Shown: positions 6,773 through 50,671 of the stretch, piece after piece
Position numbering within the stretch: position 1 is the first letter of the stretch
Layout: each line of letters opens with the position of its first letter
NCBI GenBank assembly: GCA_035462575.1
Contig: DATHUD010000712.1
Location: forward strand, 1 to 53,287
Origin: Thermoanaerobaculia bacterium
GTDB lineage: Bacteria; Acidobacteriota; Thermoanaerobaculia; Multivoradales; UBA5704
DNA length: 53,287 nt
Direction of reading: 5' to 3'
Translations under genes and position numbers: made by a program
The notes under the pieces: generated by a model
What the model saw: only the letters and a program-made list of their open reading frames with translations
Databases searched by the model: none
What the model was told of the DNA's origin: nothing

Positions 6773-7597
6773 TCAGCTCGATTCGGGAGAGGTGGTCTCG
6801 GCGAGCAGGGCCCGCAGGCGGGTGAGCTCGGCCTCCGCCTCGTTGGCGCGCTGGCGTTCCGCGTCGGCCTGCTGTTCGGCGGTGTCGGCTCGCTGGCGCT
6901 CCGCCTCGGCCCGCTGGCGCTCTGCATCGGCTCTCTGCCCCTCCGCCTCCGCCTCGGTAGGAACCAGGGTTCCGTCCGGACGGAAGAGCCGGACCCAGGT
7001 GCCCTTCCGTTTCTTCTGCTTGAAGGCTCCTCGCCAGAGGCCGACGAAGACTCCGAGCTGCTCGCTCCACAGCCGGCCCTTCCGGTCGGGGGGGATCGGC
7101 CGGTAGGCCCCGTCCGCGAGACGGAATCCCTGAAGGATCCGGGTGTACGGGTTGAACAGGAAGTACTCCGCCGTGCGGAAGTCCCGTTCGTAGATCTTTT
7201 TCTTTTCGTTGAGATCTTTCTCCGCGGTGGAGTAGGAGAGCATCTCGAAGATGACGTCCGGCAAGCGGCCGTCCTCCTCCCAGGCGATCCAGGCTTCGCG
7301 CTCGCGGTCCGGATCGACGCCGCCCACCCAGAAGACATCCGGACCGCGGAAGGCCCTTGTCTCGATGCCCTGCGTCACTTCTTCCCAGACCTCCCGGGCC
7401 TGCTGGACGGAGTAGTACACGAAGATGTCCGCGCCCGCGAAGACATCATTCCGGCCCTGCTCCGCCATGGCTTGGTAGAGAAGATCCTGCAGGAGCGGAA
7501 GCTGGATGCTGTGCCAGTCTTTTTCCAAGGGCCGTCCGTCGTCCAAGACGAGCTCGAAGGGCAGAGGCGAGAGCGCCGCGACGGCTGGCTGGCTCAT
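6773..7597 (-). CDS. Uma2-family (DUF820) PD-(D/E)xK endonuclease-like protein, paralog A
   Basis: Core PDVIFEMLSYSTAEKDLNEKKKIYERDFRTAEYFLFNP is typical of Uma2. The C-terminus has AERQRA-type coiled-coil repeats. Start at ATG 7595-7597 (MSQPAV...) with AGGGAG 6 nt upstream. An in-frame upstream ATG at 7645 is the alternative. Confidence 0.8.
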   Translation of the reverse strand: MSQPAVAALSPLPFELVLDDGRPLEKDWHSIQLPLLQDLLYQAMAEQGRNDVFAGADIFVYYSVQQAREVWEEVTQGIETRAFRGPDVFWVGGVDPDREREAWIAWEEDGRLPDVIFEMLSYSTAEKDLNEKKKIYERDFRTAEYFLFNPYTRILQGFRLADGAYRPIPPDRKGRLWSEQLGVFVGLWRGAFKQKKRKGTWVRLFRPDGTLVPTEAEAEGQRADAERQRAEAERQRADTAEQQADAERQRANEAEAELTRLRALLAETTSPESS

Positions 7598-7761: not shown

Positions 7762-8559
7762 TCAGCTCGATTCGGGAGAGGAGGTCTCGGCGAGCAGGGC
7801 CCGCAGGCGGGTGAGCTCGGCCTCCGCCTCGTTGGCGCGCTGGCGTTCCGCGTCGGCCTGCTGGCGTGCTGCGTCGGCCTGCTGGCGTGCTGCGTCGGCC
7901 CGCTGGCGCTCTGTCTCGGCCTCGGTGAGGACCATGTTTCCGTCGGGACGGAAGAGCCTGAGCCAGAGGTACGTCTTATTGTTGAAGACTCCCTGCCAGA
8001 AACCGAAGGACACTCCGAGCTGCTCGCTCCAAAGCCGTCCCTCCCGATTCGGCGGGATCGGCTGATAGGACGAGCTCATTAAGCGGAACCCCTCCAGCGC
8101 CTCCGCATCCGGGTCGTAGAGGAAGTACTCCGCCGTATGAAACACGTTCTGGTAGAGCTCTTTCTTTTTGGTGCGGTCGTTTTCCGCCGTCTTAGGGGAC
8201 AACAGCTCGACGATGACGTCCGGCAGCCGCCAGTCCTCGTCCCAGGAGACCCACGCCTTGCGCTGATGGGGGGAGACGCCACCTACCCAGAAGACGTCCG
8301 GACCGCGAAAGGCTGGTTCCTTCGAGAGCTGTCCCGTCTCCTCTTCCCAGACTTCCCGCGCCTGCTCCTGGGAGTAGTACACGAACATGTTTCCGCCGAC
8401 GTAGAAGTCGGTCCTCCCCTGCTCCGCCATGGCCTGCTGGAACGACTCCAGGAGGAGGTACAGCTCCCAAACGTGCCACTCTGTCTCCAAAGGCTCGCCA
8501 TCGCTGTAGACGAGCTCGAAGGGCAGAGGCGCGAGCGCCGCGACGGCTGGCTGGCTCAT
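7762..8559 (-). CDS. Uma2-family (DUF820) PD-(D/E)xK endonuclease-like protein, paralog B
   Basis: Same architecture as paralog A (PDVIVELLSPKTAENDRTKKKELYQNVFHTAEYFLYDP, C-terminal A(A/E)RQ(Q/R)AD repeats). Only the last 265 codons of the 651-aa track ORF are credible. Confidence 0.8.
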   Translation of the reverse strand: MSQPAVAALAPLPFELVYSDGEPLETEWHVWELYLLLESFQQAMAEQGRTDFYVGGNMFVYYSQEQAREVWEEETGQLSKEPAFRGPDVFWVGGVSPHQRKAWVSWDEDWRLPDVIVELLSPKTAENDRTKKKELYQNVFHTAEYFLYDPDAEALEGFRLMSSSYQPIPPNREGRLWSEQLGVSFGFWQGVFNNKTYLWLRLFRPDGNMVLTEAETERQRADAARQQADAARQQADAERQRANEAEAELTRLRALLAETSSPESS

Positions 8560-8681
8560 GACGTGGTCCCTTTCGGAGTCGTGTTTGGCGAGGATCTTAT
8601 TCCGCATGGCGGGTAAAGGAAAGAGGGATGAGAGCCCCTGGTCCTCCTCCTGGACGACAGGATAGCACGGCCACCCGGTCC

Positions 8682-9251
8682 TCAGCCCGGCCGCCACCAC
8701 CGGCCGGGGAGGAGGGCCATCGTCCGGTCCGGGATGAAGCCCTCGGAGACGGAGCGGACGTCCGAGACGGAGACGAAGGCCTTGGGGTGCGAGGCGCGGA
8801 CGATCTCCATCAGGCGGTCGAAGTCTTTTCTTCGGATGACGGTGAAGATCAGGCGGACGTTGCCGGAGATGCCCCGGGCGGCGAAGTCGGTGGCTCCGAA
8901 GTGTTGCGAGCGGAGGTTGGCGATCAGGTCCGTCGCGTCTTCCGGGGTGATGATCTGCACGGAGAGGAGCCCCAGGGCGAGGCGGCGCTCGATCGAGATG
9001 CCGACCCAGGTGCCGGCGGCGAAGCCCGCGGCGTAGGCCATGAGGTTGATCCAGTTGTCGAGGCGCTGCATGACCTGGCTGATCGCGAAGAGCCAGATCA
9101 GGACCTCGAAGAAGCCGATGAACGGGGCCAGGTGCCGCATCCCGCGGGAGACGAGGATGATCCGCAGCGTCGAGAGCGACACGTCGCCCAGCCGGGCGCA
9201 GAAGATGAGGAGCGGGAGGGTCACCTCGGGGAAGGGGAGGGAGAGGTCCAT
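8682..9251 (-). CDS. UPF0316/DUF2179-family membrane protein
   Basis: 189 aa with three N-terminal hydrophobic helices followed by a soluble C-terminal domain (IFTVIRRKDFDRLMEIV...VSVSDV), as in the UPF0316 family. Its start abuts the stop of the upstream gene. Confidence 0.75.
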   Translation of the reverse strand: MDLSLPFPEVTLPLLIFCARLGDVSLSTLRIILVSRGMRHLAPFIGFFEVLIWLFAISQVMQRLDNWINLMAYAAGFAAGTWVGISIERRLALGLLSVQIITPEDATDLIANLRSQHFGATDFAARGISGNVRLIFTVIRRKDFDRLMEIVRASHPKAFVSVSDVRSVSEGFIPDRTMALLPGRWWRPG

Positions 9252-35031: not shown

Positions 35032-36435
35032 ATGCGAGACTCGAAGACCCGGTGGGGCGCGCTGGCCCTGGCCGCCGGACTCCTGCTCGTCGCGTCTCCG
35101 GCCGGCGCGCGGGAGATCCTCTCCGCCCATGAGGTGGCGGCGGGCCTCGCCCGGCTCGGGCCCCGGCCGGTCGACCGCCCCGCGGACCAGACCCGGGCCG
35201 TAGCGTTCCTTCTCGATGCCATGCGCCGCGCGGGGCTTTCGGACGTGCGGGCGGTGCCCGTCCCGGGCCAGCCGGAGCTCGTGAACCTCGAAGGCGCGCT
35301 GCCGGGCAGGTCGGACCTGGAGGTCGTGCTCTCCGCCCACTACGACACCGTCTCCCGGAGCCCCGGGGCGGGGGACGACGCCTCCGGCTGCGGCGTCGTG
35401 CTGGCCGCGGCGGCCGACCTCGCGCGCACGCCGCTCGACCACACCGTGCGCGTGGTCCTCTTCGACGGCGAGGAGAAGGGCCTCCTCGGGAGCCGCGCCT
35501 GGGTGGACGCGCTGCCGCCGGAGCGGGCGTCCCGCATCCTCGCGAACCTGAACGTCGAGATGGTGGGCTGGGCCGGGAGCGCCGGGCCGGTGATCCACAC
35601 CTTCCCGGTCAAGGCCGGCGAGGAGCGGGTGATGCCTCCCGGGTGGCTCGCCCACTTCCTTCTGCGAAGCGGCGAAGCCGTGGGCTGGCCGCTCTCCGTC
35701 GCGGACAACCGATACCCCGTCCTCACCCAACTCGTGCTGCGCTCGGCCCGGGTGCGCCTGGCGGCCGACAGCAACAGCTTCCTCGCCCGGGGAATCCCCG
35801 CCGTGGCCCTCTCGGACAGCTCGCTCCTGGTCCTGGACCCCGCCTACCACGGCCCGGCGGATGCCCCCGGCCGCCTCGACGCCGCGCGCCTCGGCCGCTG
35901 GACCGACCTGATCGCCGCGACCGTCCGCAGGCTCGACGGCCTCGCCGGGAGGCCCGCCCCCGAGGACCGCTACCTCGCGGCCTTCGGCCGGGTCTGGCTG
36001 CGGCGCGACCTCCTCTGGGTGGGGTTCCTCCTCTGGGTGCTCCTCGTCTTCCGGGGCCGACCCGGGCGCTGGCTCGGGACCTCGGCCGCGGAGCACGGCC
36101 GCCAGATGCGCTCCTACCTCCCCGGCTTCCTCTTCCGCCTCCTTCTCCTCCTCGCGATCTTCCTGGCGCCGGTCTTTTCCGTGCTCCTCCTCCCGGCCGC
36201 CGCCCTCACCGTCATCCCCCCGCGGCGCACCTCCCTGAAGATCCTCTGGATCCTCCTGGGCCTCCTCCCCCTCCTCCTCCTCCTCGGAGCCCTGGGCTTC
36301 GCCGCCGCGGAAGGCATGGTGAGCCTCAAGGGAGGATTCCGGGGCGGCTGGGCCGCGGCGGTGCTGATCCCGGCGACTCTTCTCGCCTGGGGTCTGACCC
36401 TCGGCCAGTCCCGGTCCGGAGATCGTAAAGTCTGA
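35032..36435 (+). CDS. M28-family metallopeptidase with C-terminal multi-TM region
   Basis: Signal peptide (ALALAAGLLLVASPAGA), zinc-ligand contexts SAHYDT, GAGDDASGCGV and FDGEEKGLLGS, then several hydrophobic helices. Confidence 0.8.
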   Translation: MRDSKTRWGALALAAGLLLVASPAGAREILSAHEVAAGLARLGPRPVDRPADQTRAVAFLLDAMRRAGLSDVRAVPVPGQPELVNLEGALPGRSDLEVVLSAHYDTVSRSPGAGDDASGCGVVLAAAADLARTPLDHTVRVVLFDGEEKGLLGSRAWVDALPPERASRILANLNVEMVGWAGSAGPVIHTFPVKAGEERVMPPGWLAHFLLRSGEAVGWPLSVADNRYPVLTQLVLRSARVRLAADSNSFLARGIPAVALSDSSLLVLDPAYHGPADAPGRLDAARLGRWTDLIAATVRRLDGLAGRPAPEDRYLAAFGRVWLRRDLLWVGFLLWVLLVFRGRPGRWLGTSAAEHGRQMRSYLPGFLFRLLLLLAIFLAPVFSVLLLPAAALTVIPPRRTSLKILWILLGLLPLLLLLGALGFAAAEGMVSLKGGFRGGWAAAVLIPATLLAWGLTLGQSRSGDRKV

Positions 36436-43626: not shown

Positions 43627-43760
43627 GGGCCCTCACCACCCCGGCCCTCCTCTCCCATCGCCCCCCCAACCCCCGGGAGAGGAGGGAGACTGCTGCCCGA
43701 GAGGGAGGGGGCGCCCTCTCCCGGAGGTTGGGGGGGCGATGGGAGAGGGTCGGGGTGAGG
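43627..43760. repeat. Nested-palindrome repeat element, copy 3 (subfamily B, inverted relative to copies 2 and 4)
   Basis: GGGCCCTCACCACCCCGGCCCTCCTCTCCCATCGCCC...GGGCGATGGGAGAGGGTCGGGGTGAGG. It matches the reverse complement of copy 4 arm for arm. Confidence 0.8.
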
Positions 43761-43819
43761 TTTCGGGGCGGGGGCTGCAGTCCGATAAAGTAGAGCCGGG
43801 ACACCGAAAGGAGCTCCTC

Positions 43820-44617
43820 ATGAACCCTCGCCGTCTCGCCTTCCTCGCCGCCGTCTTCCTGCTGACCGTTCCACCGGCCGGGGCGGAGACGCCGGTCATC
43901 AGAATTCTCGCGGCCTATACCCCGGCGGCCGGATCCGGCGAGAGGCTCGGCAAGGCGGTGGAGGAGACCAATCTCCGCTTCGAGAAGCTCGGGGTGACGC
44001 CGCGCCTGGAGCTCGCCCACGCCGTCCCGGTGGACTACGAGGAGGCCCGGACCCGCGATCCCCTCGGAACCGACCTCGAACGCCTCCACGGGAAGACCGA
44101 CGGCTACCTGTACGAGCTCCACGCCCTCCGCGACGCCTACGAGGCGGACCTCCTCGTCCTCCTGGTCGGAGACGCCGCGAACGACCGGGACTGCGGCCGG
44201 GTCCACGACGCCTTCCTCGTCCTCGAAGCCGGCTGCGCGGACGCCCCCGGCACCCTCACCCGCCAGCTCGCGCTCCTGGCCGGCATCCCCGAAGACGATC
44301 CCGCCGCCTGGAACGCCCAGGGCGAAATCCTCGCCCGCTTCCGCTCCCCCGTCGCCGTGACGCTTACCTGCGACGGCCGGGGCCCCCGCTTCGACTGCCA
44401 CGCCGCCGCCGAGGGAGGCAGCGGCCCCTACCTCTACCAATGGAGCTTCCGCGGAGAGGGGACGCTTACCGCCGAAGGCACCCACGCCGGGATCGCCATG
44501 GCCCCGGACTGCGACGCGGAGGACGCGGCGCCGTTCGTCTGGGTCACTGTGAAGGACGCCACGACGGCGACGACCTACGCGTCGCGTTCTCTGGGATGCT
44601 GGGCGGAAGCCCACTGA
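43820..44617 (+). CDS. Secreted reprolysin/M12B-like protein lacking the HExxH zinc site, with a C-terminal PKD/Ig-like segment
   Basis: AAAGGAG SD and a signal peptide (LAFLAAVFLLTVPPAGA). IRILAAYTPAAG...AYEADLLVLLVGD...DCG resembles Reprolysin_4/5-type metallopeptidase N-halves. The expected HExxGH position reads TLTRQLALLAG. GGSGPYLYQWSF resembles a PKD-like repeat. The family call is by eye only. Confidence 0.5.
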   Translation: MNPRRLAFLAAVFLLTVPPAGAETPVIRILAAYTPAAGSGERLGKAVEETNLRFEKLGVTPRLELAHAVPVDYEEARTRDPLGTDLERLHGKTDGYLYELHALRDAYEADLLVLLVGDAANDRDCGRVHDAFLVLEAGCADAPGTLTRQLALLAGIPEDDPAAWNAQGEILARFRSPVAVTLTCDGRGPRFDCHAAAEGGSGPYLYQWSFRGEGTLTAEGTHAGIAMAPDCDAEDAAPFVWVTVKDATTATTYASRSLGCWAEAH

Positions 44618-44636
44618 ACCAGCTCATCTGCGCGGC

Positions 44637-44843
44637 AAAACCCACTGGGTCTGCGGGAAAACCCACTGGGTTTTCGGCAGAACCCACTGGGTTTTCGGGA
44701 AAATCCACTGGGTTTTTGGCAGAACCCACTGGGTTTTCGGCGGAACCCAGTGGGTTTTTGGCAAAACCCACTGGGTTTTTGGCAGAACCCACTGGATCTG
44801 CGCCAGATCCACTCCGTTTCGGAACGGAATCCAAGTGGATTCC
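44637..44843. repeat. Tandem array of 21-bp units, each containing a 17-bp palindrome (consensus ARAACCCACTGGGTTTTYGGC)
   Basis: The CCCACTGGG core occurs at 44641, 44662, 44683, 44704, 44725, 44746, 44767 and 44788, in exact 21-bp steps. Two degenerate palindromic units follow. No stop codon occurs in any frame across the array. Confidence 0.9.
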
Positions 44844-45024
44844 GGGACAGGAGCACCGGTTTGGGCGCCGGAGGAGTTGGTTTCTGTCGCCGTCAGGAGC
44901 GGATCTGGCTCGGAAATGCTGGCTTGGGAGGACCCGGAGTCGGTGATTCGAACGGGAGATGGGCGAGATCTTGCTAAACTCTCGGTAGTTTCCCCGACCG
45001 TTTCGAGCTGCCAGGAGGCCGACC

Positions 45025-47991
45025 TTGGACCCTTCCGCTCTCTCCGACCTCGTCGCCCAACTCGTCCAGACCCTCGGACCCTACCTGCCGGCTCTTCTTG
45101 AAACGGGGAAGACCGTCGGAGGCAAGGCCGTGGAGGAGGTCGGAAAGAAGGCCGGCGGCGAGGCGTTCGATGGGGCGAAGAAGGTCTGGAAGAAGCTGCG
45201 GGGGAAGGTGGAGGAGAAGCCGGAGGCGGCCGAGGCGGTCCGCGACCTCGCCGAGGACCCGGACGATTCGGATCTCCAGGCGGCGGTTCGGGTCCAGCTC
45301 AAGAAGATCCTCGCCGCGGATCCCAGCCTTGTCGGGGAGATGGCGAAGCTTCTCCAGACCGTGGAGATCCACGGTTCTGGGAACGCAGTCGCGCAGGTCC
45401 GAGGCTCTCAGAACGTCGTCGCTCAAGGCAGCGGAAACACGGCGGGTGGGGCAGGTTCGTACGTCGCAGGGCGCGACTTCCACTTTCACACCGACTTCGG
45501 AAAGGCCGATAAAGACTCTCTCCGCAAGACCTATCTCTCCTGGGTGATGGAGCAGACGGGATACTTGGCCCTGTCGGGGGTGGACCCGGCCGTCAAGGCA
45601 AGCGACCGGGAGGCGCGGTTGAGCCTGGAAGCGGTCTATACAGACCTGCGGACTAACTCTTTTCGTCAAGAAGGAAATTTTTGGAGGTTGTTATCGGCGC
45701 TCGAGCAGCTCAACGAGCACCCCCGCTTGGTACTGCTCGGCGCACCCGGCAGTGGCAAGAGCACGTTCGTCAACGTCTTGGCTCTTTGCATGGCCGGGGA
45801 ATTATTGGGCTCCCAGGCTACCAATCTGGCTCTTTTGACGTTCCCTCTCCTGAGGAAACGCCAAGGGGAAGAGAAGGAGCCCCAGCCCTGGGATCATGGT
45901 CCGCTCTTTCCCGTGCGCGTCGTTCTCCGGGATTTCGCCGCCACTGGCCTGCCCCTTCCGGCCATCTCGGCCACCGCCCGGCACCTTTGGGATTTCATTG
46001 AGTCAACTCTTAAGGATTCGGGTGTCGCGGAGTGCTTCCCTCTCGTGAAGAAAACCCTTCAGGAGAAGGGCGGCCTGATTCTCCTCGATGGCCTTGATGA
46101 GGTCCCTGAGGCGGAGACCCGGCGGGAGCAGATCCGGCAGGCCGTTGAGAGCTTCGTGAGTGGTCTTGGGAAGAGCTGTCGTATCCTTCTCACGAGTCGC
46201 ACCTACGCCTATAAAAATCAGGATTGGGCTCTTCGCGGCTTCAAAGACGCGGAGCTTGCTCCTTTCGATTCCGTCCAGATCCGCCACTTCGTCTCCCGCT
46301 GGTATTCCCACATGGCCGCCCTGGGGAGGGTGAAGGCGGAAGAGGCCGAGGGCCGGGCTGTGCGGCTTGAGCAGGCGATTTTCAATAGCGAGCGCCTAAG
46401 GGGGTTGGCTGGGCGTCCCCTCCTCCTGACGCTCATGGCAAGCCTTCACGCGTGGCGGGGGGGGAGCCTGCCTGAGCACCGGGAGGAGTTGTATGCCAAT
46501 GCCGTCGAGTTGCTCCTCGACTCCTGGGAGCGCCAGCGGCTGCGGGTCAACGCCATGGGCGAGTATGAACTCCTCCAGCCGAGCCTCGCAGAGTGGCTCA
46601 AGGTGGATCAGCAAAAAGTCCGGCAGATCCTGGACGAACTGGCCTTCGAAATCCACAACGCCCAGGCGGATTCGGAGGGCACGGCCGACCTCCCGGAGGA
46701 GAAGCTGGTAGCTCGCCTCCTGAGCGTCAGCCGGAGCCCGGAAGCAAACCCCCTTCAACTCATCGATTTTCTCAGCCAACGTTCCGGCCTGCTAGAGGCG
46801 AGAGGCGTGGGAATCTACTCGTTTCCTCACCGGACCTTTCAGGAGTACCTCGCCGCCTGCCATCTTACGGGTGAGTCCTTCCCAAAGCAGGTGGCGGATC
46901 TGGGACGGTCCGGTCTAGGCCGTTGGCGCGAGGTGGTTCTGCTTGCCGGAGCCAAGGCTGCTCGAGGCTCCACTGCGAGCGTCTGGCAACTCGTGGAGGC
47001 CCTCTGCTGGCGGGAGGCGGACGATACTGCGGGTGATCTCGCGGACGCCTGGGGGGCTCACCTCGCCGGACAGGTGGTCGTCGAGTCCGCGAACCTCGCC
47101 GAGATCGCCGAGTGGAACCGCTCGAAGCTGGAGCGCCTCCGACGCTGGGTGGTGCGTCTGTTGCGGGACGAGAGGCTCCCAGCGGTCGAGCGAGCTCTGG
47201 TGGGAGACAGCCTGGCTCGGATTGGAGATCCACGGACCGAGGTGATGACGGTGGACGGGATGGAGTTTTGCGAGGTACCAGTAGGGAAGTTCTGGATGGG
47301 GAGCGTAGAGGTGGACTGGGAGGCTGATGGGAATGAGAAGCCCCTGCATGAGGTGGAGATCCCGTATACGTTCCGGATCGGCCGTTTTCCTGTCACCGTG
47401 GCGCAGTTTCGCGAGGCCGTTGAGACGGGCGGCGTCAATCTAAAGGGTCCTGGGGGTCTCAGCCAACCCGCAAACCGTCCGGTGACTCGAGTGAGCTGGC
47501 ATGAGGCTCAGGAGTTTTGTGTTTGGTTGACGCGGAAGTGGTGCAGGGAGGGGCGGATCGGGGTGGATTGGGAGGTGCGCCTTCCTACGGAGGCGGAGTG
47601 GGAGAAAGCGGCGAGAGGAATGGACTGCCGGCTGTATCCGTGGGGTTATAAGTTTGAGGCGGAGCGCGCCAACGCTTCTGAGACCGGGGTCGGCCGGCCT
47701 AGCGCAGTAGGGTGTTTTCCTGGCGGAGCTAGCCCTTTCAAGTGCGAGGAGATGAGCGGGAACGTCCGGGAGTGGACTCTGAGTCTTGTGGAAGAGTATC
47801 CGTATCGTTTCAGGGATCGCCTAGAAGTTTTTGAAGAGTATTCGGACAGGATAATGGTGCTACGTGGTGGCTCGCTCTTCAATGAATCCAAGCTCGTGCG
47901 GTGTGCCTGCCGCTTCAGAGACGTCCCGGACTTCCGGGAGGACGACATAGGATTCCGGGTCGTTGTTGCCCCATTCTCCTTTGAGCTCTGA
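45025..47991 (+). CDS. STAND NTPase: N-terminal helical module + NACHT domain + C-terminal FGE/SUMF1-like domain
   Basis: 988 aa. TTG start with AGGAGG 6 nt upstream. Walker A GAPGSGKST (aa 239-247), Walker B LILLDGLDEV (aa 351-360), FPHRTFQEYLAA. C-terminal RVSWHEAQEFCVWL, RLPTEAEWEKAARG, GNVREWT, LRGGS and DIGFRVV are typical of the FGE-sulfatase fold. It is visibly less GC-rich than the neighbouring genes. Confidence 0.9.
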   Translation: MDPSALSDLVAQLVQTLGPYLPALLETGKTVGGKAVEEVGKKAGGEAFDGAKKVWKKLRGKVEEKPEAAEAVRDLAEDPDDSDLQAAVRVQLKKILAADPSLVGEMAKLLQTVEIHGSGNAVAQVRGSQNVVAQGSGNTAGGAGSYVAGRDFHFHTDFGKADKDSLRKTYLSWVMEQTGYLALSGVDPAVKASDREARLSLEAVYTDLRTNSFRQEGNFWRLLSALEQLNEHPRLVLLGAPGSGKSTFVNVLALCMAGELLGSQATNLALLTFPLLRKRQGEEKEPQPWDHGPLFPVRVVLRDFAATGLPLPAISATARHLWDFIESTLKDSGVAECFPLVKKTLQEKGGLILLDGLDEVPEAETRREQIRQAVESFVSGLGKSCRILLTSRTYAYKNQDWALRGFKDAELAPFDSVQIRHFVSRWYSHMAALGRVKAEEAEGRAVRLEQAIFNSERLRGLAGRPLLLTLMASLHAWRGGSLPEHREELYANAVELLLDSWERQRLRVNAMGEYELLQPSLAEWLKVDQQKVRQILDELAFEIHNAQADSEGTADLPEEKLVARLLSVSRSPEANPLQLIDFLSQRSGLLEARGVGIYSFPHRTFQEYLAACHLTGESFPKQVADLGRSGLGRWREVVLLAGAKAARGSTASVWQLVEALCWREADDTAGDLADAWGAHLAGQVVVESANLAEIAEWNRSKLERLRRWVVRLLRDERLPAVERALVGDSLARIGDPRTEVMTVDGMEFCEVPVGKFWMGSVEVDWEADGNEKPLHEVEIPYTFRIGRFPVTVAQFREAVETGGVNLKGPGGLSQPANRPVTRVSWHEAQEFCVWLTRKWCREGRIGVDWEVRLPTEAEWEKAARGMDCRLYPWGYKFEAERANASETGVGRPSAVGCFPGGASPFKCEEMSGNVREWTLSLVEEYPYRFRDRLEVFEEYSDRIMVLRGGSLFNESKLVRCACRFRDVPDFREDDIGFRVVVAPFSFEL

Positions 47992-48023
47992 ACCCTCTGA
48001 CCTCTGAATCTCTGGACGGAGGG

Positions 48024-48049
48024 CCAGAGGGGGGCTTGCCCCCCTCTGG
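48024..48049 (+). terminator. GC hairpin downstream of the NACHT gene (11-bp stem, 4-nt loop)
   Basis: CCAGAGGGGGG-CTTG-CCCCCCTCTGG lies 33 nt after the stop. No U-tract follows, so terminator function is not certain. Confidence 0.5.
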
Positions 48050-48060
48050 GGCGGTGCGAA

Positions 48061-48206
48061 ACCTCACCCCGACCCTCTCCCATCGCCCTCCCTTCCTCCG
48101 GGAGAGGGCGCCCCCACCCTCCTCTGCGGGATAAGACCTCCTATCGTCTCCCTCCTCTCCCGGGGGGCGGGAGGGCGATGGGAGAGGAGGGCCGGGGAGG
48201 TGAGGT
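48061..48206. repeat. Nested-palindrome repeat element, copy 4 (subfamily B)
   Basis: ACCTCACCCCGACCCTCTCCCATCGCCCTCC...GGGAGGGCGATGGGAGAGGAGGGCCGGGGAGGTGAGGT. Inner arms CCGGGAGAGGGCGCC and TCTCCCTCCTCTCCCGG. Confidence 0.8.
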
Positions 48207-48266
48207 CCGGGCGGGCGGGGCGGCCGCAATCTGGCAAAGTAGACTCAAAGGCCCGGACATTTTGAT

Positions 48267-48342: not shown

Positions 48343-49251
48343 ATGCCCTCGATGGCCCACGAGATCCAGGTGGATCTCTTCAAGAACCGTCCGTCCCTCG
48401 CCGCCGAGATCCTGGCGGAGGTGCTGGACGTCCCGCTTCCGCCCTACAGCGAAGCGCGCCTCGCCTCGACCGACTTGACGGAGATTCAGCCGGCGGAATA
48501 CCGCGCCGACGCCGTCGTCGTCCTTTTCGAGCACGACGCCCCGGTCCGGGTGATCATCGTGGAGGTTCAGCTCGCGGCCGATCCCGGAAAGCGCCTGAGC
48601 TGGCCCGCGTACGTGACGGTCTCCCGCGCGATCCATAGATGCCCGGCGGATCTGCTCGTTGTCGCACCCGAGCCAGCCGTCGCCGGCTGGTGCGCGGAAG
48701 GGATCGAGATCGGCGTCCCCGGTTTCATCCTGCACCCGCCGGTGCTGCGCCGCACCGCCGTTCCGGTCGTGACGGACCCCGCGGAAGCGGCCCGCCGGCC
48801 CGAGCTCGGGGTGCTCTCCGCGATCGCCCACGGCGAGACTGGTGAGGGGGCGACAATCGCTGCCGCGGTACTTCCCGCGGTCCGGGAACTCGACGGTGAC
48901 AGGGCCAAGTTCTACTACGACCTTGTAGACAATTCCCTCAATCAGGCCGCTCGCCGGTCGCTGGAGGTGATGATGAAGGGCTACGAATATCAGAGTGATT
49001 TTGCGAAGAGGTATGTCGCGGAGGGGCGTGCTGAGGGTTGGGTCGAGGGGCGTGCCGAAGGGCGAGTCGAGGGGCGTGCGGAGGGGACGGCTCAAGCCGT
49101 GCTGACCGTGCTTCAGGCTCGCGGCATTACTGTACCGGACGCGGTCCGTGAGCGCATCCTGGCCCAGACAGACCCGGAGCGGCTGAAGCGCTGGCTGGAA
49201 AGGGCGGCCGTTGCCAAGTCGGTCGACTCGGTCTTTGACAAGCCGAACTGA
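48343..49251 (+). CDS. Rpn/YhgA-like PD-(D/E)xK nuclease-family protein with DUF4351-like C-terminus
   Basis: 302 aa. YRADAVVVL...VIIVEVQL is the D...E-x-Q/K nuclease core context. The C-terminal (A/V)EGR x4 repeat followed by VLTVLQARGITVPDAVRERILAQTDPERLKRWLERA is the DUF4351 pattern. The family call is by eye. Confidence 0.65.
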   Translation: MPSMAHEIQVDLFKNRPSLAAEILAEVLDVPLPPYSEARLASTDLTEIQPAEYRADAVVVLFEHDAPVRVIIVEVQLAADPGKRLSWPAYVTVSRAIHRCPADLLVVAPEPAVAGWCAEGIEIGVPGFILHPPVLRRTAVPVVTDPAEAARRPELGVLSAIAHGETGEGATIAAAVLPAVRELDGDRAKFYYDLVDNSLNQAARRSLEVMMKGYEYQSDFAKRYVAEGRAEGWVEGRAEGRVEGRAEGTAQAVLTVLQARGITVPDAVRERILAQTDPERLKRWLERAAVAKSVDSVFDKPN

Positions 49252-49280: not shown

Positions 49281-49838
49281 TCAGAATCCGGACTCGAGAA
49301 CCCTCTTCCAAAGCGCAGAGCACCTCTCCGGCAATCGGGGAAGCTCCCTTTCGACCACCTCGATCAGCCTCTCCCGGTCCGGCCCTTCCAGAACCTGCAG
49401 AATGTCCCAGGCATCCTGGGGGCCTCCGGCGTAGAGCTTGAGGAGGATCAGGTCGGCAGGGCCGAGGATGGGCAGCTCCAGATCGGCGTAGCTCCTCAGG
49501 GGAGCGCGCTCGATCATCTCCCTCTGCCAGGTGAACTTGCCAATGACAAGGTCAACGGGCGGCTGGCCGGGGGTCTCGAACCGGGCAACGCCGGCCAGGG
49601 GATCGGTCAGGTCGCCCTTGGTGATCTCCACGTCCACACCTTGAGCATTGAGATCCGTCCAGGTCTGCCGGTCGAGGCAGGCGGGATCGAGGGCCATCAG
49701 GTCCGCGTCCAGGGTAGTGCGGTTCAATCCGTGGACGGCCATGGCCGACGCCCCGATCAGGGCGTGGGGAATCCCGCGCTTCCTGAGAACCCCGACGACC
49801 TGTTCGAGGAGTTTCAGCCGATGATCTCCGTCATGCAT
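49281..49838 (-). CDS. Nucleotidyltransferase-fold protein (minimal NTase, toxin-like)
   Basis: 185 aa. LIGASAMAVHGLNRTTLDADL gives the G[SA]...DxD NTase signature. The start overlaps the 3' end of a small upstream ORF by 25 bp. Confidence 0.65.
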   Translation of the reverse strand: MHDGDHRLKLLEQVVGVLRKRGIPHALIGASAMAVHGLNRTTLDADLMALDPACLDRQTWTDLNAQGVDVEITKGDLTDPLAGVARFETPGQPPVDLVIGKFTWQREMIERAPLRSYADLELPILGPADLILLKLYAGGPQDAWDILQVLEGPDRERLIEVVERELPRLPERCSALWKRVLESGF

Positions 49839-50035
49839 TTGGACGGGGTGCGGCCAGCCTGCCGCCGGCGCTGTAGGAGGCGGATCGCGGTTCGCCGGTC
49901 CACGCCTTGCGCCTGGCGGAAGGCTTCGAGGCCGATCTCGGCCATTTCCAGGGAACGGCGAATGCGTTCCTCCAGAGGGAGGGCGAGGAAGGCTTCCCGG
50001 TCCTTCTTCCTGAGATCGTCCGCCACGGAGCGCAT
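49814..50035 (-). CDS. Small helical protein, putative cognate antitoxin/regulator of the NTase
   Basis: 73 aa (MRSVADDLRKKDREAFLALPLEERIRRSLEMAEIGLEAFRQAQGVDRRTAIRLLQRRRQAGR...). It overlaps the NTase gene in a typical TA arrangement. The weak point is that AGGAGG sits 16 nt from the ATG. Confidence 0.5.
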   Translation of the reverse strand: MRSVADDLRKKDREAFLALPLEERIRRSLEMAEIGLEAFRQAQGVDRRTAIRLLQRRRQAGRTPSKCMTEIIG

Positions 50036-50061
50036 GGCCAAAGTATAGCCGCCTCCTACTC

Positions 50062-50466
50062 CTACTCCGGCTCCTCCTGCCTCGCCTGGAGCAGGAAACC
50101 GGTGATGGCGCCGCTCTGGTCGATGCCCCAGCGGATGGTGAACGGCGTGGGCGCTTTCGCGAAGCGGGCGGTCCGGATGTAGAGCCGGGTGGAGGCGCCG
50201 GGCGTCACCGTTTCGTCCAGGATGGCGGTCTCGGCCCCCGCGCTGTTCACGAAGTCCTTGCGGAGGTCGGCGAGGTCCCGGGCGCTTCCGATCGCCTCCC
50301 GCATCGGCATGGAGAAAAGGTCCCAGATCTTGGCGGTCTCGCCCGCGTAGAGCCACTCCGTGTACCGGCGCCCGGCCTCCAGAGCATCGACCGGCGCGGG
50401 GGGCTGGGCCTGGACCGGGAGGGCGAGGAGGATTGCAAGGAGGGCGGCGGTCCGGAGGGTTCGCAT
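50062..50466 (-). CDS. Hypothetical secreted protein
   Basis: 134 aa with a signal peptide (MRTLRTAALLAILLALPVQAQ). The remainder of the 342-aa track ORF runs through repeat copy 5 and antisense to padR. Confidence 0.6.
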   Translation of the reverse strand: MRTLRTAALLAILLALPVQAQPPAPVDALEAGRRYTEWLYAGETAKIWDLFSMPMREAIGSARDLADLRKDFVNSAGAETAILDETVTPGASTRLYIRTARFAKAPTPFTIRWGIDQSGAITGFLLQARQEEPE

Positions 50467-50497
50467 GGTGGAGGGAGTATAGCCGGGCGTTCCGCCC

Positions 50498-50634
50498 GGG
50501 CCCTCACCCCAACCCTCTCCCAGCCCCCTCCCATCCTTCCGGGAGAGGGAGCCTCTGCAACAGCAAAATCCCCATAAGGGCTCCCTCTCCCGGTCGGGGG
50601 ACGGGAGGCTGGGAGAGGGTTGGGGTGAGGGCCC
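50498..50634. repeat. Nested-palindrome repeat element, copy 5 (subfamily A)
   Basis: Outer arms GGGCCCTCACCCCAACCCTCTCCCAGCC and GGCTGGGAGAGGGTTGGGGTGAGGGCCC are perfectly complementary. Inner arms CCGGGAGAGGGAGCC and GGCTCCCTCTCCCGG. Confidence 0.9.
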
Positions 50635-50671
50635 GGGCCGAAGGCCCGGTGCGATCTCCCGCTTGAAGCAT

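Follow-up and report, generated by a model that had tools for sequence, protein, structure and literature searches.

The 53,287 bases analysed here (the window) come from a metagenome-assembled genome (MAG) of Thermoanaerobaculia (Acidobacteriota) and carry, immediately upstream of an NLR-like STAND gene, a tandem array of eight 21-bp units at 44633-44800, to which no strand is assigned. The gene (45025-47991, + strand, 988 aa) is assigned from Pfam, its homologues and synteny an N-terminal helical region, a NACHT NTPase and a C-terminal FGE-sulfatase domain of C-type-lectin fold, and is referred to as NACHT-FGE. With a rough probability of 0.45, the array represents a fast-evolving, copy-number-variable set of putative sequence-specific protein-binding sites that works as the upstream control region of this gene. 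An original prediction, made from the letters of the window alone, had left three options for the array, namely an operator governing the NACHT gene, a relic partition site or origin of an integrated element, and a transcript folding into a ladder of hairpins. The first of these is favoured, as the array is present at all the orthologous loci that were fetched, follows the NACHT gene rather than its other neighbour and lies upstream of a -10-like box, and as the core of a related pair of arrays is constrained relative to its spacer.

Architecture and non-coding nature of the array

Tandem Repeats Finder (TRF) reports one strong array in the window, at 44633-44795, with a period of 21, 7.8 copies and 85% matches. 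Together with a motif search against shuffles, the repeat families and a table of units, this gives eight units in exact register, with the consensus CGGCARAACCCACTGGGTTTT. Each unit joins a dyad core, (A)AACCC-ACT-GGGTT(T), to a spacer of 4 bp, YGGS. When up to two mismatches are allowed, the 13-mer core AACCCACTGGGTT is found on the + strand at 44639, 44660, 44681, 44702, 44723, 44744, 44765 and 44786, in constant steps of 21 bp; the search of the 53,287 bases returns 15 strand-matches where 0.42 are expected, a count reached in 0 of 100 shuffles, and no match outside the array. The original prediction had described eight recurrences of one core in 21-bp steps, and the spacing holds while the identity does not, since the core CCCACTGGG is exact in five units and carries one substitution in the other three, TCCACTGGG (44704), CCCAGTGGG (44746) and CCCACTGGA (44788). 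Similarly, a 17-bp palindrome had been attributed to every unit: all have a dyad, but the full palindrome AAAACCCACTGGGTTTT is perfect in only two of the eight (44658-44674 and 44763-44779), the remaining units having dyads of 11-15 bp. As 21 bp corresponds to two helical turns, successive cores face one side of the DNA.

At its 3' end the array is followed by three dyads, defined by sequence and dyad scan and again without an assigned strand. P1, TGGATCTG-CGC-CAGATCCA (44793-44811), overlaps the last, degenerate unit; P2, CCGTT-TCGG-AACGG, lies at 44814-44827; and P3, CGGAATCC-AAGT-GGATTCCG, which contains GGAATCC-AAGT-GGATTCC, lies at 44825-44844. P1 is 100% identical in the closest relative, L134, and P2 and P3 are identical there as well. 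The first and the last of them had already been described as decayed dyads, whereas P2, which lies between them, had not.

The stretch 44637-44843 is free of stop codons in all six frames, as had been stated, a property matched by 0 of 5000 shuffles and by 0.09% of the window's 207-bp stretches. It arises because a stop-free unit with a length that is a multiple of 3 is repeated, and the five shadow open reading frames (ORFs) that the original prediction derived from it do overlap the array. These 207 bp of open frames, and the fact that in the orthologous locus L129 and similar ones the gene caller ran the upstream protein into the array, could speak for a heptad repeat (for example NPLGFRx or xPTGFxx) of a real protein. 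Against this, both flanking genes have a GC content at third codon positions (GC3) of 0.85-0.95, and no GC3 periodicity is present in the array: the frame signal is lost after 44617, where the upstream gene ends, and returns only with NACHT at about 45025. Moreover, the upstream gene has its true, conserved stop at 44615-44617, the units of orthologous arrays contain TAG stops, the peptides encoded are unrelated among orthologues, and Pfam returns nothing significant for the shadow ORFs. The array stretch is non-coding, and the conserved coding heptad that the original prediction had held against its own proposal is essentially excluded by these comparative data. Two further 21-bp tandem repeats of the window (6885-6949 and 7839-7922) are coding coiled-coil heptads (...ADAARQQ...) unrelated to the array; they are found towards the C-terminal ends of a pair of similar genes, and one gene of the pair (7762-8700) has a match to the Uma2 family of putative restriction endonucleases.

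Two other classes of non-coding repeat do not apply. The window units contain six weak hairpin-plus-T-run sites against 1.1 expected; T runs are absent from the orthologous arrays, therefore the terminator-like score is not a conserved property, and a terminator was rejected. CRISPR arrays are defined by repeats of 23-50 bp, unique spacers of about the same length and cas genes, whereas here the units abut with a 4-bp spacer and no cas gene is found by Pfam scans of the flanking ORFs and of the roughly 50 largest window ORFs with high GC3.

The array at orthologous and related loci

Homologues of the upstream and the NACHT protein were fetched with their DNA, which yields nine orthologous loci (the window, L134, L129, L130, L132, L135, L136, L137 and L131) and one paralogue, L138. 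An array lies upstream of NACHT-FGE in 9 of the 9 orthologous loci and in the paralogue, with 4 to about 25 units. In the nine orthologous loci the arrays end about 60-230 bp before the start codon, and their autocorrelation peaks at 20-21 bp, except in L137, where the peak is at 41; the array of L138 is placed likewise.

The unit itself is much less stable. At the nucleotide level, L134 (GCA_035458145.1) shares about 94% identity with the PadR-MacB flank of the window, 97% with its leader and 80% with its NACHT gene, and it has the window's unit, the three 3' dyads and the left junction; it has four units against eight, and the secreted-protein gene that precedes the window's array is absent. 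Variation in unit number at orthologous loci, for which the original prediction had proposed to look, is thus present between the closest relatives. L129, L130 and L132 carry 8-15 increasingly degenerate units whose core is of the TACCCGTTGGGTA type, L136 about 10 units of TCTCCC-N4-GGGGAAAG, L137 a unit of 41-42 bp, L135 about 17 units of CGCCTC-N3-GAGGCG, and L131 about 20-25 units with the non-palindromic core TGTCGCGTAS. The paralogue L138, at 59% identity, has 19-20 units of exactly 21 bp, TCATCAG-N-CACGCCT, in another context, beside a bAvd-RT diversity-generating retroelement (DGR; RT, reverse transcriptase). Across the loci compared, it is therefore position and period that are conserved, and not sequence and copy number.

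The array accompanies NACHT while the gene on its left varies, being a secreted protein, a reprolysin-like protein, small genes, a toxin-antitoxin pair or nothing. In L133 both NACHT and the array are absent; in L128 an L131-type array is kept beside a deletion that runs from the NACHT promoter through the gene into the 5' part of the following one. On the evidence of these alignments, the array belongs to the NACHT gene rather than to its left neighbour. No other comparable intergenic array is found by TRF in the 53-kb window or in about 88 kb of related loci, so that, within this DNA, the unit is not scattered among unrelated intergenic sites, the outcome that the original prediction had set against a link to this locus.

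An ancestral composite region, in which a site A (ACCC-N3-GGGT) and a site B (TGTCGCGTA) were expanded differently by lineage, was considered and rejected. The hints for it are weak, namely TTTCTGTCGCC in the leader of the window and, in L136, a palindrome like B; counting motifs is uninformative in GC-rich DNA.

Constraint on the core

The arrays of L131 and L128, here taken with 19-20 units each, display an 8-9-bp core with 2.0 bits at 6-8 positions and spacers of 11-12 bp with 0-0.7 bits, which is near random, and the profile of L138 is similar. Between these two orthologous arrays the core diverges by 6.2% and the spacer by 17.6% (Fisher p = 0.0009), the core being any 8-mer with at most one mismatch in either sequence, a definition that biases its divergence slightly downwards. 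Such a profile is not explained by homogenisation, because homogenisation copies whole units. Judged by this comparison, the core of the L131/L128 pair is under purifying selection relative to its spacer, and we infer that the same constraint acts on the window's own, recently homogenised units.

These data also bear on an unlikely alternative, a neutral or near-neutral minisatellite, that is, a slippage-prone variable-number tandem repeat (VNTR) without function for NACHT. Formally the array is one, as it is a tandem repeat of a 10-100 bp unit whose copy number is 8 in the window and 4 in L134. Slippage alone could account for this difference between close relatives and for the replacement of the unit sequence between orthologues; the arrays of L130 and L132 look degenerate, the period may simply be inherited, as unequal exchange keeps unit length, and the same short cores at 20-21-bp spacing are easily found in unrelated DNA. 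On the other hand, an array persists across all orthologues, with NACHT down to about 60-65% amino acid identity, and in the paralogue at 59%, while bacteria generally delete useless DNA; and both the core-versus-spacer profile and the threefold lower divergence of the core are unexpected under neutral homogenisation. Bacterial VNTRs such as the MIRU-VNTR loci of Mycobacterium tuberculosis (a subject of PMC12817950) are likewise intergenic tandem repeats, with units of tens of base pairs, whose number varies in close strains and whose copy number upstream of genes may affect expression. The NACHT array differs from them in that it is kept at one gene over deep divergence while its sequence is replaced, that the L131/L128 core appears selected and that each window unit is a dyad in strict two-turn phase.

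A putative control region of the NACHT gene

The segment between array and gene is consistent with a promoter. The leader, from the array to the putative promoter (44845-44970, + strand), aligns with L134 at about 97% identity and is followed by the box TTGCTAAACTC (44971-44981, + strand), a probable extended -10 element (TGn-TAAACT) recognised in the leader alignment. Within it, GCTAAACT (44973-44980, with TAAACT at 44975-44980) is invariant in the four orthologues that start with TTG, although its distance to the start codon varies, and loci that start with ATG have an invariant ATAAATAA in its place. Further downstream, a Shine-Dalgarno sequence, AGGAGG (45013-45018), and the TTG start (45025-45027), both on the + strand, are recognised in the sequence and conserved in L134, L135 and L137; this start is 182 bp past 44843, in line with the roughly 180 bp given in the original prediction. 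As the invariant box sits between the array and the start codon, the array probably lies upstream of the transcription start and of the NACHT promoter. By eye, the leader motif TTTCTGTCGCC (about 44883-44893) resembles the TTYCYTGTCGCG unit of the L131/L128 arrays. A sigma-54 promoter with enhancer sites was also tried and rejected: by eye, GG-N10-GC fits the window and L134 and fails in L135, while it is TAAACT that is conserved, which favours a -10 box.

The following mode of action would fit these features. A dimeric DNA-binding protein, encoded elsewhere in the genome, may bind each core, and the bound proteins may polymerise cooperatively on a single helical face, building a filament or a wrapped complex that ends close upstream of TAAACT. 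Such a complex would set how strongly an immune-type STAND protein that may be costly is expressed, with silencing as the most plausible outcome, and the gain or loss of units through slippage or unequal recombination would tune the effect. That the ligand is a protein acting on DNA, and the direction in which it would regulate, are both inferences. Arrays of NtrC-type upstream dyads and of MalT boxes offer a parallel, as they too are repeated sites upstream of a promoter that lie on one helical face and nucleate an oligomer. They usually comprise 2-5 sites, whereas the NACHT arrays have 8-25, and a convincing sigma-54 promoter is lacking here.

The NACHT protein is, on comparison of the loci, not the specific binder, because the window and L134 share the array while the N- and C-terminal regions of their NACHT proteins differ strongly, and because L135 has the window's NACHT N-terminus together with an unrelated core. 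The original prediction was right that no par, rep or helix-turn-helix (HTH) partner is adjacent, and the binder, if there is one, is encoded elsewhere.

A number of observations, in addition to the slight bias of the divergence test, weigh against a control region of this kind. No array has a candidate binder gene beside it, and no gene besides NACHT is common to all loci. The cores differ among fairly close orthologues (ACCC-N3-GGGT, CGCCTC-N3-GAGGCG, TGTCGCGTA, TCATCAG), which therefore calls for several trans factors or for a fast change of specificity, and constraint was measured on the L131/L128 core, a sister array type, rather than on the window units. Independent observations are few, because all loci except L138 are orthologous, and distant NACHT-FGE genes of other phyla, in Competibacter, Chlorohelix and Thiodictyon, have no array. 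A consensus promoter scan finds no sigma-70 site at the box, so that the promoter is assigned by conservation. Lastly, 21-bp arrays with the core ACCCACTGGGT, found on other contigs by the search described below, lie in L125, L126 and L001 between convergent genes, and for this reason cannot regulate a promoter there.

If the array does control NACHT-FGE, it would provide a concrete handle on the regulation of bacterial NLR-like (NACHT/STAND) genes. To our knowledge, the regulation of such genes is largely unknown, and their mis-expression is taken to be potentially costly. The NACHT-FGE clade of Thermoanaerobaculia has a helically phased, copy-variable upstream array with a core that is constrained in the pair measured and a sequence that is replaced between lineages, which suggests that the DNA regulating an immune-type gene can keep pace in evolution with the sensor domain of its product. 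In the literature consulted, including a paper on DGRs and STAND proteins (PMC10907252), no array of this kind is described at bacterial NLR-like genes.

DNA or RNA level

It is also conceivable, though rather improbable, that the array acts as RNA, either in the 5' leader of NACHT or as a separate small RNA, where it could serve as a sponge or platform for an RNA-binding protein in the manner of CsrB, or as a double-stranded target of an RNase that limits NACHT expression. Indeed, stems of 5-7 bp closed by an ACU triloop can form in the window units, and the folding of the entire stretch is much better than that of shuffles (z = -7.6), but any array of palindromes yields such a z-score, on either strand. 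The non-palindromic cores of L131, L128 and L138 are co-oriented with the sense strand of NACHT. In addition, orthologues of the ATG type have an inverted repeat, CCTCCTA-N11-TAGGAGG, over the ribosome-binding site, from which it follows that some transcript starts further upstream. This element, CCTCCTA-TATAAATAAGG-TAGGAGG, stands directly before the start codon in L129 (3505-3550), L130 (1635-1680), L131 (2395-2430) and L136 (4970-5003) as an AT-rich box in a 68% GC genome, and in RNA its 7-bp inverted repeat would sequester the Shine-Dalgarno sequence; the TTG-type leader of the window does not have it.

Several findings disfavour an RNA function and, with it, the hairpin ladder of the original prediction. 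In the dyad-type arrays, mismatches in the dyads are G·T in 47 cases and A·C in 44, thus without the G·U bias that would point to RNA pairing. Dyads are weak or absent, by dyad scan, in the arrays of L130, L132, L131, L128 and L138, so that they are lost in several orthologues. Rfam gives no match at gathering thresholds and, below them, only spurious microRNA-type matches well under the gathering scores. Finally, the conserved -10-like box lies downstream of the array. The features of a structured RNA, namely G·U-tolerant pairing, dyads kept among orthologues and an Rfam family, are therefore not those of the array.

Likeness to origins, centromeres and other repeats

In form, the array recalls the iterons of the R6K gamma origin, pSC101, RK2 and the lambda origin, which are likewise tandem direct repeats, with 4-20 copies of about 17-22 bp spaced by roughly two helical turns. 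The gamma origin of R6K has seven 22-bp iterons, the lambda iterons lie in gene O, and iterons of the lambda type are themselves dyads. Iterons and the NACHT array share a conserved core and a freer spacer, and in each the sequence is specific to the family and changes fast between relatives. A second likeness is to parC of R1, parC of pSK41 (20-bp tandem repeats) and sopC of F, where a phased array loads a cooperative protein filament and doubles as an operator directly upstream of the operon it regulates.

On these grounds the array could be an origin or a partition site, relic or active, of an integrated plasmid, phage or island, as the original prediction had proposed. Eight direct repeats of about 21 bp in helical phase are indeed iteron-like, and ACCCACTGGGT-core arrays of similar period occur in phage replication-organiser genes (L124, L123) and beside terS (L127). 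The surroundings are nonetheless those of a core chromosome, with polA, gcvTHP, queA, L21/L27, obg, thiolase, enoyl-CoA hydratases and a PadR-MacB pair, and relatives show synteny at the locus. The Pfam scan of the ORFs examined for cas finds no gene of the rep, par, integrase or relaxase kind, and among them none of parA/parM or parB/parR. No DnaA box lies within or near the locus, the only TTATCCACA-like site, with one mismatch, being at 35591, and a likeness of the ATCCAC motifs to DnaA boxes was examined and found unsupported. There is no AT-rich unwinding region, as the lowest GC near the locus (0.51-0.55) is that of the array itself. With the array as query, blastn returns nothing from 50,697 phage and 72,556 plasmid records, and the phage matches are low-GC DNA recovered by a search in which core and spacing had both been fixed. 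On this evidence, an origin or centromere, relic or active, is essentially excluded.

The same findings separate the array from its look-alikes. Of the features of an iteron origin it has the helical-phase repeats, and differs in having no cognate initiator gene, DnaA box or AT-rich unwinding element and in its tie to NACHT-FGE in the core chromosome. Arrays of the parC and sopC type always adjoin the gene of their binder (ParR or ParB), whereas no small ribbon-helix-helix or HTH gene is conserved beside the NACHT array. The array is thus iteron- or parC-like in form and yet is not a member of either family, because the partner genes and origin features that define them were tested and are absent. 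Repetitive extragenic palindromic (REP) sequences and the related BIME and REPIN elements (a subject of PMC3733652 and PMC3116915) are, like the units here, short imperfect intergenic palindromes that are sometimes clustered. REPs are dispersed in tens to hundreds of copies, and the 21-bp unit has no second copy in 53 kb. Labels such as plasmid origin, centromere or gene should be avoided for the array, as should REP, judged by the 53-kb window and about 88 kb of related loci.

A generic element of the REP type, or of the MITE type (miniature inverted-repeat transposable elements), does exist in this genome, CCCTCTCCC...GGGAGAGGG, of which the window's final 10 kb contain three copies, and is unrelated to the 21-bp unit. 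It is about 140 bp long, itself palindromic (CACCCCGGCCCTCCTCTCCC...GGGAGAGGAGGG), and found at 43628-43767, 48057-48208 and 50483-50649, as well as in L134 (398-458) and in L126. Its copies bracket the segment made of the secreted-protein gene, the array and NACHT, and their arms are 92-94% complementary and 4.3-4.5 kb apart.

The matches in other phyla come from a search with a pattern of two units, CCCACTGGGTT-N10-CCCACTGGGTT, which is found in the Verrucomicrobiota MAG L001, in the low-GC contig L122 and in the high-GC soil contigs L125 and L126 and, on the phage side, in the phage-like contigs L123 and L124 and in the viral contig L127. The array of L124 lies inside a DUF1376+DnaT gene, that of L123 inside a DUF6291 gene followed by a G39P-type helicase loader, and those of L127 precede an Sf6-type small terminase gene. 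In L124 (3031-3933) and L123 (11103-11942), 3-5 ACCCAsTGGGT repeats with a period of 20-21 bp fall in an inter-domain linker and are translated as NNPVGFE-type peptides; by analogy with lambda O and SPP1 G38P, they are probable origins within an initiator gene. Control searches with other cores also return unrelated arrays, the matches of GTCGCGTA being giant-virus coding or otherwise unrelated repeats. TCATCAG gives more than 119 matches. As the search fixed core and spacing, and as the controls return such arrays, the cross-phylum matches are treated as convergent look-alikes and not as relatives. An all-against-all blastp of the ORFs of seven core-sharing loci finds no shared neighbour gene, and returns six-frame translations of the repeats matching each other and three short ORF matches away from the arrays. 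A search for related NACHT loci in viral contigs gave nothing useful, and a tblastn of plasmids with the NACHT protein gave distant homologues only, of which the two inspected (L141 and L142) have no upstream array.

The phage matches allow one more, highly improbable, reading, in which the array serves as bait or decoy in the chromosome, imitating iteron or pac arrays of local phages, and forms the DNA half of an NLR-like immune module. A phage initiator or small terminase would then be titrated away from the phage genome, or would switch on the adjacent NACHT gene; array and NACHT would make up a sensor of two parts, with a DNA half that evolves no more slowly than the sensor domain of the protein. 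For this speaks, thinly, the agreement of the window core and period with the iterons in the phage genes of L123 and L124 and with the arrays beside terS in L127, matches that come from low-GC DNA and from the search with core and spacing fixed. There is also a precedent for interference, as the iterons of the lambda origin, when cloned together with oop, block the growth of lambdoid phages (PMC3349717).

The NACHT gene and its neighbourhood

The NACHT gene itself varies strongly between close relatives. Between the window (45025-47991) and L134 (795-3761) it is 80% identical in nucleotides and 76% in amino acids, the latter falling to 38-70% over residues 51-350 and to 33-48% at the C-terminus. 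The contrast with its surroundings is marked, as in L134 the flanks are at 94% and the leader with the first 50 NACHT codons at 97-100%. This pattern suggests diversifying selection or recombination inside the gene. Its 3' end (47860-48056) resembles a DGR target: about 100 bp of coding sequence (about 47860-47965) are hypervariable among close orthologues and are followed by highly conserved CTCTGAAC repeats across the stop codon (47989-47991) and by a GC hairpin, CCAGAGGGGGG-CTTG-CCCCCCTCTGG, at 48024-48049. Genes for bAvd and RT adjoin NACHT-FGE genes in the paralogues L138 and L139, and the window contains neither a DGR template repeat nor an RT. The sensor domain of NACHT-FGE is probably diversified by DGRs. 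PADLOC has no model for the window's protein.

On the left of the array, the slot that begins after an enoyl-CoA hydratase gene is a hotspot of gene flux (window 43633-44632, L135 1956-4429, L137 3195-4519, L131 893-1640). Among the relatives one finds there a secreted protein, a protease resembling reprolysin, small ORFs or a DUF3368/UPF0175 toxin-antitoxin pair, or the slot is empty. In the window it is occupied by VLQ45_27190 (43820-44617, + strand, 265 aa), whose real start is at about 43820, whose product has a signal peptide and whose stop lies 16 bp before the array. L134 and L136 lack this gene, and in L135, L137 and L131 something else stands in its place; for this reason it is not part of the element.

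Downstream of NACHT, a protein of 294-302 aa is conserved (window 48343-49251, L134 3905-4789, L136 8062-8958, L128 9121-9363). It has no Pfam match, carries RAEG repeats at its C-terminus and, by eye, resembles PD-(D/E)XK proteins of the Rpn/DUF4351 type; L128 keeps its last 80 residues after the deletion that removed NACHT. Beyond it, on the - strand, lie a DUF2204-type nucleotidyltransferase gene and a small upstream ORF (49281-49838 and 49814-50356), which may form a toxin-antitoxin-like pair in the same variable region; the C-terminus of the small ORF (...RRQQAGRT.SKCM..IIG) is conserved in L134.

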